Origin: a virus | Virus genome (UHGV): UHGV-0038615 | DNA: 24,779 bases | Reading direction: 5' to 3' (one strand) | Notes under the pieces: generated by a model | Database searches by the model: none | The model's input: only the letters and a program-made list of their open reading frames with translations | What the model was told of the DNA's origin: nothing | Position numbers and translations under genes: made by a program | In this document: positions 1 to 54 of the stretch, one piece after another | How the letters are laid out: every line of letters begins with the position of its first letter | Position numbering within the stretch: the first letter of the stretch is position 1

Positions 1-54
1 GATTCTATCGATGTGGTCAATGGAAGACGGTGACCAGGGATAGGGCTTATGCAT

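Follow-up and report, generated by a model that had tools for sequence, protein, structure and literature searches.

In the GenBank record of bacteriophage P2, the interval from the ogr terminator to int carries, in order, an Int P-arm site, an IHF site, the 27-bp core, a Cox region and an Int P'-arm site. The annotated P-arm site is TCGATGTGGTCAATGTGTGGACGTGACC and the P'-arm site is CTGTGGACACTGTGTGGACAC; the arm repeats of P2-type phages follow the consensus tgTGGaCa (PMC3448106). The cyaR RNA gene has been tabulated as an insertion site of P2-type elements in E. coli strains W, K-12 (as ogr-D') and B (PMC3032704). In K-12, the element is annotated as the cryptic prophage PR-X and comprises ogrK, yegZ (D') and attR. 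We take the cyaR terminator site to be the classical P2 site locI. Barreiro and Haggard-Ljungquist reportedly described, in 1992, a P2 remnant that K-12 carries at locI.

The stretch analysed here (UHGV virus genome UHGV-0038615; 24,779 nucleotides, hereafter the window) is a P2-like (Peduovirus) prophage that lies between yegR and yegQ and occupies the terminator of the sRNA gene cyaR. This identification rests on a P2-type integrase, on ogr, and on attL and attR sites that place the P2 core in the cyaR terminator (Table 1). The integrase contains the Pfam domains Int_N and Phage_integrase, and the window also encodes C, cox, a replication gene and tail genes of P2 type. Its ends match E. coli chromosomes, for example NZ_AP021944.1, at 100% (left) and 99.9% (right), and in that genome the element sits with yegR to its left and cyaR and yegQ to its right. 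The full cyaR gene in the extended locus (L002) scores 100.7 bits against Rfam CyaR_RyeE. [quoted passage not shown]

Table 1. Positions of the att-site components and associated genes in the window; assignments of relic sequence are putative.
Feature	Position	Strand	Remarks
attL chromosomal flank (B side)	1..54	+	Putative fossil P arm; E. coli yegR-cyaR intergenic DNA
Left 17-mer copy	6..22	+	Putative first Int arm-type repeat of the relic, TGTGGTCA at 12-19
Second arm repeat of left flank	23-28	+	Apparently decayed to GAAGAC
att core at attL	55..76	+	22 bp common to attR
P' arm of resident prophage	77..190	+	Aligned to P2 attP and its annotated features
Integrase gene, P2 type	161..1174	-	83.9% identity to P2 Int, 336 aa
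ogr, late-gene activator	23088..23309	+	Pfam Ogr_Delta; reference genome annotation
ogr terminator	23318-23344		Directly after ogr
Cargo gene, trypsin-like peptidase with C-terminal SEC-C motif	23616..24467	+	
Second ogr terminator copy	24614-24640		
Resident P-arm Int binding region (predicted)	24641..24668	+	Collinear with P2 'Int, P arm' protein_bind feature
P-arm arm-type repeats	TGTGGTCA at 24647-24654, TGTGGACA at 24658-24665	+	
P-arm IHF-site counterpart	24674..24707	+	Aligns with P2-annotated IHF site AATAAATCCTTTTATTTCAATTTATTGTACGTAA
cyaR sRNA gene, 3' part	24709..24779	-	Rfam CyaR_RyeE, 80.2 bits in the window

The core at attR (24706..24732, + strand) matches the 27-bp attP core of P2 at 27 of 27 positions, and the core at attL at 22 of 27. 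Phage sequence (CGTTTAT...) stands in place of AGATT to the right of the attL core, and the attP core of the window phage thus differs from that of P2 on the P' side. Within the P' arm, positions ~98-170 align with the Cox-binding site annotated in P2, and Int arm-type repeats TGTGGACA lie at 170-177 and 181-188. Between 55 and 110, phage-supplied CGTTTATATACCCTTACAACAGGGGC makes up a hairpin with the core, and a T run comes next on the minus strand; the whole is probably the int terminator.

The resident prophage has several features of its own. It is 99.96-99.98% identical to the prophage of NZ_AP021944.1, but two internal blocks are absent. The first (~4.0 kb, junction at ~11657-11667) takes in the 5' part of the terminase gene gpP, then gpO, gpN, gpM and most of gpL; the second (~3.8 kb, junction at ~17844-17845) takes in part of gpI, gpH, gpG and gpFI. 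As given, the prophage is therefore defective. The first junction is contiguous in none of 5426 complete E. coli genomes, so both losses are either peculiar to the source strain or arose when the window was made. A 1.27-kb insert encoding the peptidase is bracketed by two near-identical copies (26 of 27 bases) of the ogr terminator. The protease domain of this peptidase resembles the RT-protease and PDC-M35A defence candidates of PADLOC. The insert looks like cargo gained at the ogr-attP junction. At the position of P2 tin/old, a two-gene cassette (6521-9264) encodes an ABC/OLD-type ATPase annotated as DUF3696 (PADLOC NsnB, 3.7e-55; PDC-M55A, 6.9e-46) and a 370-aa partner with a weak match to PDC-M55B; it is probably anti-phage defence cargo.

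An exact 17-mer, TATCGATGTGGTCAATG, occurs twice in the window, both times on the + strand (6-22 and 24641-24657). No other match was present at up to two mismatches, and none is expected from 100 dinucleotide-preserving shuffles. The match grows to 19 of 20 bases (TTcTATCG... versus TTgTATCG...). Both copies lie to the left of an att core, AAAAAATAAGCCCGTGTAAGGG (55-76 and 24706-24727), with spacers of 32 nt at the left copy and 48 nt at the right copy. The first-pass annotation had recorded this repeat and both spacer lengths accurately, and the repeat lies beyond chance expectation.

[quoted passage not shown] Because the order is that of P2 and the repeats fit the consensus, the right-hand 17-mer can be assigned to the first half of the P-arm Int site. 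By this sequence comparison, it spans the first of two direct arm-type repeats of the kind bound by the N-terminal domain of Int. Two direct tgTGGaCa repeats 11 bp apart are present in the resident arm (24647-24665) and are absent as a pair from the left flank.

What, then, is the left-hand copy? The first-pass annotation proposed that a tandem P2-like prophage or satellite with the same core lies left of the window, positions 1-54 being its right end. An arm-like sequence does adjoin the shared core there, and the K-12 locus holds the P2 remnant ogrK-yegZ. However, an 8-kb leftward extension in NZ_AP021944.1 consists of yegR, which lies 104 bp before window position 1, followed by yegS, a gatR-like gene and gatDCBAZY. 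These are ordinary host genes; no ogr, D, tail, int or satellite genes lie immediately left of the window within those 8 kb, and a tblastn comparison of all reference-prophage ORFs with the yegS-to-core interval returned no match. PR-X, moreover, is located to the right of the flank in K-12, where the window prophage sits, and not to its left. In the window strain, the flank abuts the resident attL, and the ogr and D' fragment is absent from between flank and cyaR.

The distribution of the flank also argues against a tandem element. The left flank with its 17-mer is near-universal E. coli chromosomal DNA: yegR together with the 158 bp up to the core is present in 5385 of 5426 complete E. coli genomes (at least 80% coverage), and the 65 bp adjoining the core, 17-mer included, in 5327 of 5426. 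A synthetic empty-site query, in which the flank was joined to cyaR, is covered by 4572 genomes, mostly in one piece. Unoccupied sites that we inspected directly (M8, U90, F344, F1140, TUM2820 and 2012C-4502) retain the 17-mer, a result that the first-pass annotation had itself named as refuting its proposal. With the same flank in more than 98% of E. coli, empty sites included, a tandem neighbour is scarcely credible. The proposal that the left-hand DNA is the right end of another P2-like element with the same core survives as a statement of evolutionary descent, and fails as a statement about a live neighbour.

Similarity between the flank and phage P arms extends past the 17-mer. Over 31 aligned columns, the window flank reads TCGATGTGGTCAATG-GAAGACGGTGACCAG against TCGATGTGGTCAATGTGTGGAC-GTGACCAG in P2 and PR-X. 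The window spacer alone aligns with the arm of P2 and K-12 PR-X (GAC-GTGACCAG) at a local p of ~0.005-0.008, and the first-pass description of the two spacers as unrelated was mistaken. A scan of species-representative genomes for the 27-bp core identified Escherichia sp. MOD1-EC7003, of a cryptic clade, which has a 49-nt spacer containing GGGATAAATCCTTCTGTTTCATTG that aligns with the P2 IHF-site region GAAATAAATCCTTTTATTTCAATT. The alignment of this spacer gives z = 9.5 against P2 and 12.5 against PR-X, scores reached by 0 of 2000 shuffles. The E. coli strains M160133 and AH01 have a 52-nt spacer, and their flank aligns across the whole P arm, including the IHF-site region. One might object that the repeat is short and the resemblance accidental. 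Length is all that speaks for coincidence, which has a negligible probability: no 17-mer match is expected by chance, and the long alleles are homologous to the arm in register over its whole extent at scores that shuffled sequences did not reach.

Host alleles differ in how much of the arm they keep. Spacers of 52, 49, 44, 32, 31 and 19 nt were found, and alignment indicates that the 32-nt spacer of the window is a deletion derivative. The IHF-like stretch is deleted from the window flank and survives in diverged form in the long host alleles (44-52 nt). All host alleles examined show a degenerate second repeat (GAAGAC or GAAGGA versus TGTGGAC). The first repeat matches P2 at 15 of 15 positions, and the rest of the arm shows roughly 55-60% identity by our own count in one alignment. 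This better-kept first repeat is unlike the product of pure neutral decay, and could be due to chance, residual function or sequence exchange with phages. We considered strict conservation of the 17-mer as evidence for selection and rejected it, as M160133 and AH01 have a G-to-A change within the 17-mer (TGTGG to TATGG) that gives TATCGATATGGTCAATG.

A hybrid arm, with a relic left half and a phage-type right half, would mark deletion of a prophage by recombination inside the 15-mer. We sought exact hybrids and found none; the best full-length matches in this search were the long relic alleles, at ~87% identity. In the empty site of E. coli F1140 (L161) and in L070, the 9 nt adjoining the core are CTTACGCGT, as in PR-X and P2-like phage arms (ATTACGCGT), and not CTTATGCAT. 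This may be a trace of exchange between phage arm and relic near the core. At the other end of the flank, one base left of the 17-mer, AAGGGAGATT (7995-8004 in the extended locus L001, its tail GATTC being window positions 1-5) repeats the final 10 nt of the 27-bp core exactly (p ~0.002, post hoc). The 10-mer is polymorphic among strains (AAGGAGGATT, AAGGGGGATT, AAGGGGGAAT) and nothing core-like precedes it. It may be a core fragment left at a deletion junction or, equally, a decayed terminator tail.

The remainder of the relic, comprising yegR and a fossil attL, lies left of window position 1. The yegR gene is missing from E. ruysiae, whose cyaR site is occupied by a real P2 prophage, and from several Kluyvera; in these genomes, yegS begins 75-88 bp from the core. 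The yegS-proximal sequence is common to E. coli, MOD1-EC7003 and E. ruysiae, and in E. ruysiae it runs into the P2 attL. Starting exactly where that real attL starts, after the same yegS-proximal B arm, MOD1-EC7003 (L029 215-270) and E. coli (L001 ~7245-7310) carry a decayed core with the beginning of a P' arm, ~0.8 kb left of the flank. The MOD1-EC7003 copy reads AAAAAATCAGTTCGAGTATGGGGGATTCAGTG-GTTACCAGTA-GGGCTTGCAATGG against AAAAAATAAGCCCGTGTAAGGGAGATTTAGGGTGTCACCAGTAGGGGCTTTCAACGG in P2, and its alignment to the P2 core and P' arm scores 45 (shuffle mean 19.1, sd 2.2, max 31). The E. coli copy is not significant against P2 alone (score 22, shuffle mean 19.5) and is orthologous to that of MOD1-EC7003 (score 240); we recognise it through this orthology and through the E. 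ruysiae attL. By these alignments, the yegS-cyaR interval of E. coli has a fossil attL at one end and, at the other, a fossil P arm beside a live core. With both fossils in place, the interval looks like one ancient P2-like prophage, reduced to ~0.9 kb and enclosing yegR.

The interior of this interval is less readily traced to a phage. No phage genes are recognisable in it by tblastn or sensitive blastn; the two att fossils are all that was found. A tblastn search for yegR in 50,697 phage records returned two entries, both apparently via the E. coli flank or the K-12 locus. The idea of yegR as recognisable phage cargo is without support, as it has no independent phage homologue. Distant YegR homologues sit in unrelated chromosomal contexts. 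Given these contexts and the lack of a phage homologue, the attL and P-arm fossils could stem from different integrations.

Outside E. coli, the relic was found in one genome, that of MOD1-EC7003, in a sample to which E. albertii, E. fergusonii and E. marmotae did not belong. In MOD1-EC7003 (L029 302-367), ~22 N-terminal codons that match yegR remain, directly after the fossil P' arm and inverted relative to E. coli. As read from the two sequences, the relic interior is rearranged differently in the E. coli and MOD1-EC7003 lineages. Kluyvera and Enterobacter hormaechei genomes (L009, L011, L012, L016, L019-L021, L023, L027) have other short inserts between yegS and the cyaR core, one of them with a small gene that ends near the core (translation ...LAQLAAVAGLQLTLSKA). 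Across genera, the terminator of cyaR appears to be a hot spot for insertion.

Homology leaves the direction of transfer to be decided. In IMG/VR, the exact 15-mer, TGTGGAC and the IHF-like stretch occur in succession ahead of the cyaR core and of the cyaR-core variants of other hosts, and the same arm module stands before at least three unrelated cores in phage contigs. Wphi, which uses a different core, has a close arm variant (TCGATGTGGAC...TGTGGAC, then ATAAATCCATTTAT). The flank type, in which GAAGA follows the 15-mer, was seen in 27 cases in IMG/VR, all of them on the E. coli side of attL. These comparisons make the arm module a property of the phage lineage that is independent of cyaR. 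One IMG/VR contig, 2084038018_000015 (L039), has two full P-arm modules 1.55 kb apart (4683 and 6234), only the second of which is followed by a cyaR-type core; this is an insert-bracketing duplication comparable to that of the terminators in the window.

In the opposite direction, aberrant excision would have carried the E. coli flank into P2-like phages that use cyaR and given them their P arm, the host copy then being the original. Such an event, in taking the left flank, would insert that DNA where the P arm sits, between ogr and the core. That this junction is recombinogenic is shown by its cargo and by the duplication of terminators or arms. Capture from the host is nonetheless very unlikely. 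It does not fit with an arm module that precedes several unrelated cores and has a close variant in Wphi, nor with arm repeats that agree with the P' arm repeats and with the consensus tgTGGaCa (PMC3448106). In the host copy, for its part, the second repeat is degenerate and the IHF region is riddled with deletions. Full arms are found in prophages of E. ruysiae and Kluyvera intermedia, which do not have the flank, and a decayed attL lies 0.8 kb further left. From the phage-wide distribution of the module, the degeneracy of host copies and the fossil attL, we infer that the sequence passed from phage to host.

Together, our data suggest with high probability that the left flank is what decay has left of the P arm of a far older P2-like prophage, that the attB used by the window phage is the attR of that prophage, and that the relic encloses yegR. 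The sequence relationships would be explained by the following history. An ancestor shared by E. coli and the MOD1-EC7003 lineage would have acquired an older P2-like phage at cyaR, at a time when yegS adjoined cyaR directly, as it now does in E. ruysiae and several Kluyvera. Deletions may later have removed nearly all of this prophage and left the order yegS, original B arm, decayed attL, ~0.6 kb including yegR, decayed P arm and intact core, with an arm remnant that is now ~50-70 bp. The core is intact at attR and in empty sites; it presumably survived because it is the cyaR terminator and under selection. The relic attR would then serve as attB for later P2-like phages, which recombine in the intact core, while the relic arm erodes by deletions and substitutions. 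If attB is a relic attR, each new attL consists of fossil P arm, core and P' arm. A prophage at this site would therefore appear flanked by a repeat of its own arm sequence, which accounts for the repeat in the window. K-12 PR-X, with the order D'-ogrK-P arm-core to the right of the same flank, shows this process taking place again.

The relic arm has probably lost its function. Alternatively, the flank copy, though of fossil origin, might still act as an Int arm-type site that affects integration or excision. It could, for example, be one source of the preference for locI, or lend attL a partly attP-like character. Eight sampled E. coli sequences have the same 25-nt stretch, TCTATCGATGTGGTCAATGGAAGAC, between neighbouring stretches that vary on both sides; MOD1-EC7003 keeps its first 23 of 25 nt (GAAGAT); and the first repeat, identical over 15 of 15 positions to the footprinted P2 site, is better kept than the rest of the arm. 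Set against this conservation, the lineage with a full-length arm (M160133/AH01) carries the TATGG change inside the site, the distance from site to core ranges from 19 to 52 nt among strains, and no host allele examined has an intact second repeat. As for the IHF region, the window allele has lost it and the long alleles keep a diverged form. E. ruysiae is lysogenised by P2 at the same core without the flank. We regard a working site as improbable. The attB function of P2 is described as requiring the core alone.

A broader proposal is that the preserved repeat still binds P2-type Int, that attB is a hybrid with one arm site, and that yegR, a near-universal E. coli lipoprotein gene, is domesticated cargo of the ancient phage. 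This is improbable. A hybrid attB, if real, would affect integration efficiency or the stability and excision of P2-like prophages. Unless the relic site is functional, the understanding of P2 integration is unchanged.

The decayed-prophage reading of the flank has several consequences. The 17-mer could mislead methods that call prophage boundaries from direct repeats; the true junction is the 22-27-bp core, and IMG/VR prophage calls at the cyaR site often extend into the host flank. The relic offers a testable origin for the orphan gene yegR. Across strains, cyaR/locI would be layered, with an ancient relic enclosing yegR, the younger PR-X in K-12 and present-day prophages. Over the history of the species, a single phage family has evidently made repeated use of one sRNA terminator. 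A full-text literature search returned no mention of an arm-like host flank or of a yegR relic, and the 1992 locI paper may have noted the similarity. A prophage relic at a reused integration site is a feature of a kind already known, of which this locus is a new instance.

How does the relic compare with systems already described? The P arm of P2 attP, with its two Int arm-type repeats and IHF site, shares 15 of 15 nt of the footprinted site with the flank, and the long host alleles are collinear with the whole P arm up to the core. The host flank differs from it in the degenerate second repeat, in the deleted (window allele) or diverged (long alleles) IHF region, and in a core spacing of 19-52 nt in place of 48.

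PR-X is the nearest counterpart. Like the relic, it occupies this locus, has the same core and is what remains of a P2-like prophage that lost all but its right end and left a usable core beside cyaR; among phage-type sequences, its P arm (TCGATGTGGTCAATGTGTGGACGTGACCAG...) matches the host flank most closely. Unlike the relic, PR-X is young and strain-specific, and keeps ogr and part of D; its attL core stops at position 19, where it joins D' directly. The relic is older, nearly species-wide and without phage genes. In K-12, it lies left of PR-X and is absent from the annotated PR-X feature.

Relics at tRNA and sRNA hot spots follow a similar course: integration regenerates the 3' end of the gene, the site stays usable and older elements erode alongside, as at cyaR. 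Across strains, cyaR would hold at least three generations of such elements, namely the yegR relic, PR-X and intact prophages. Unlike other hot-spot relics, the yegR relic is so reduced and so widely fixed that it reads as intergenic DNA and a core gene, yegR.
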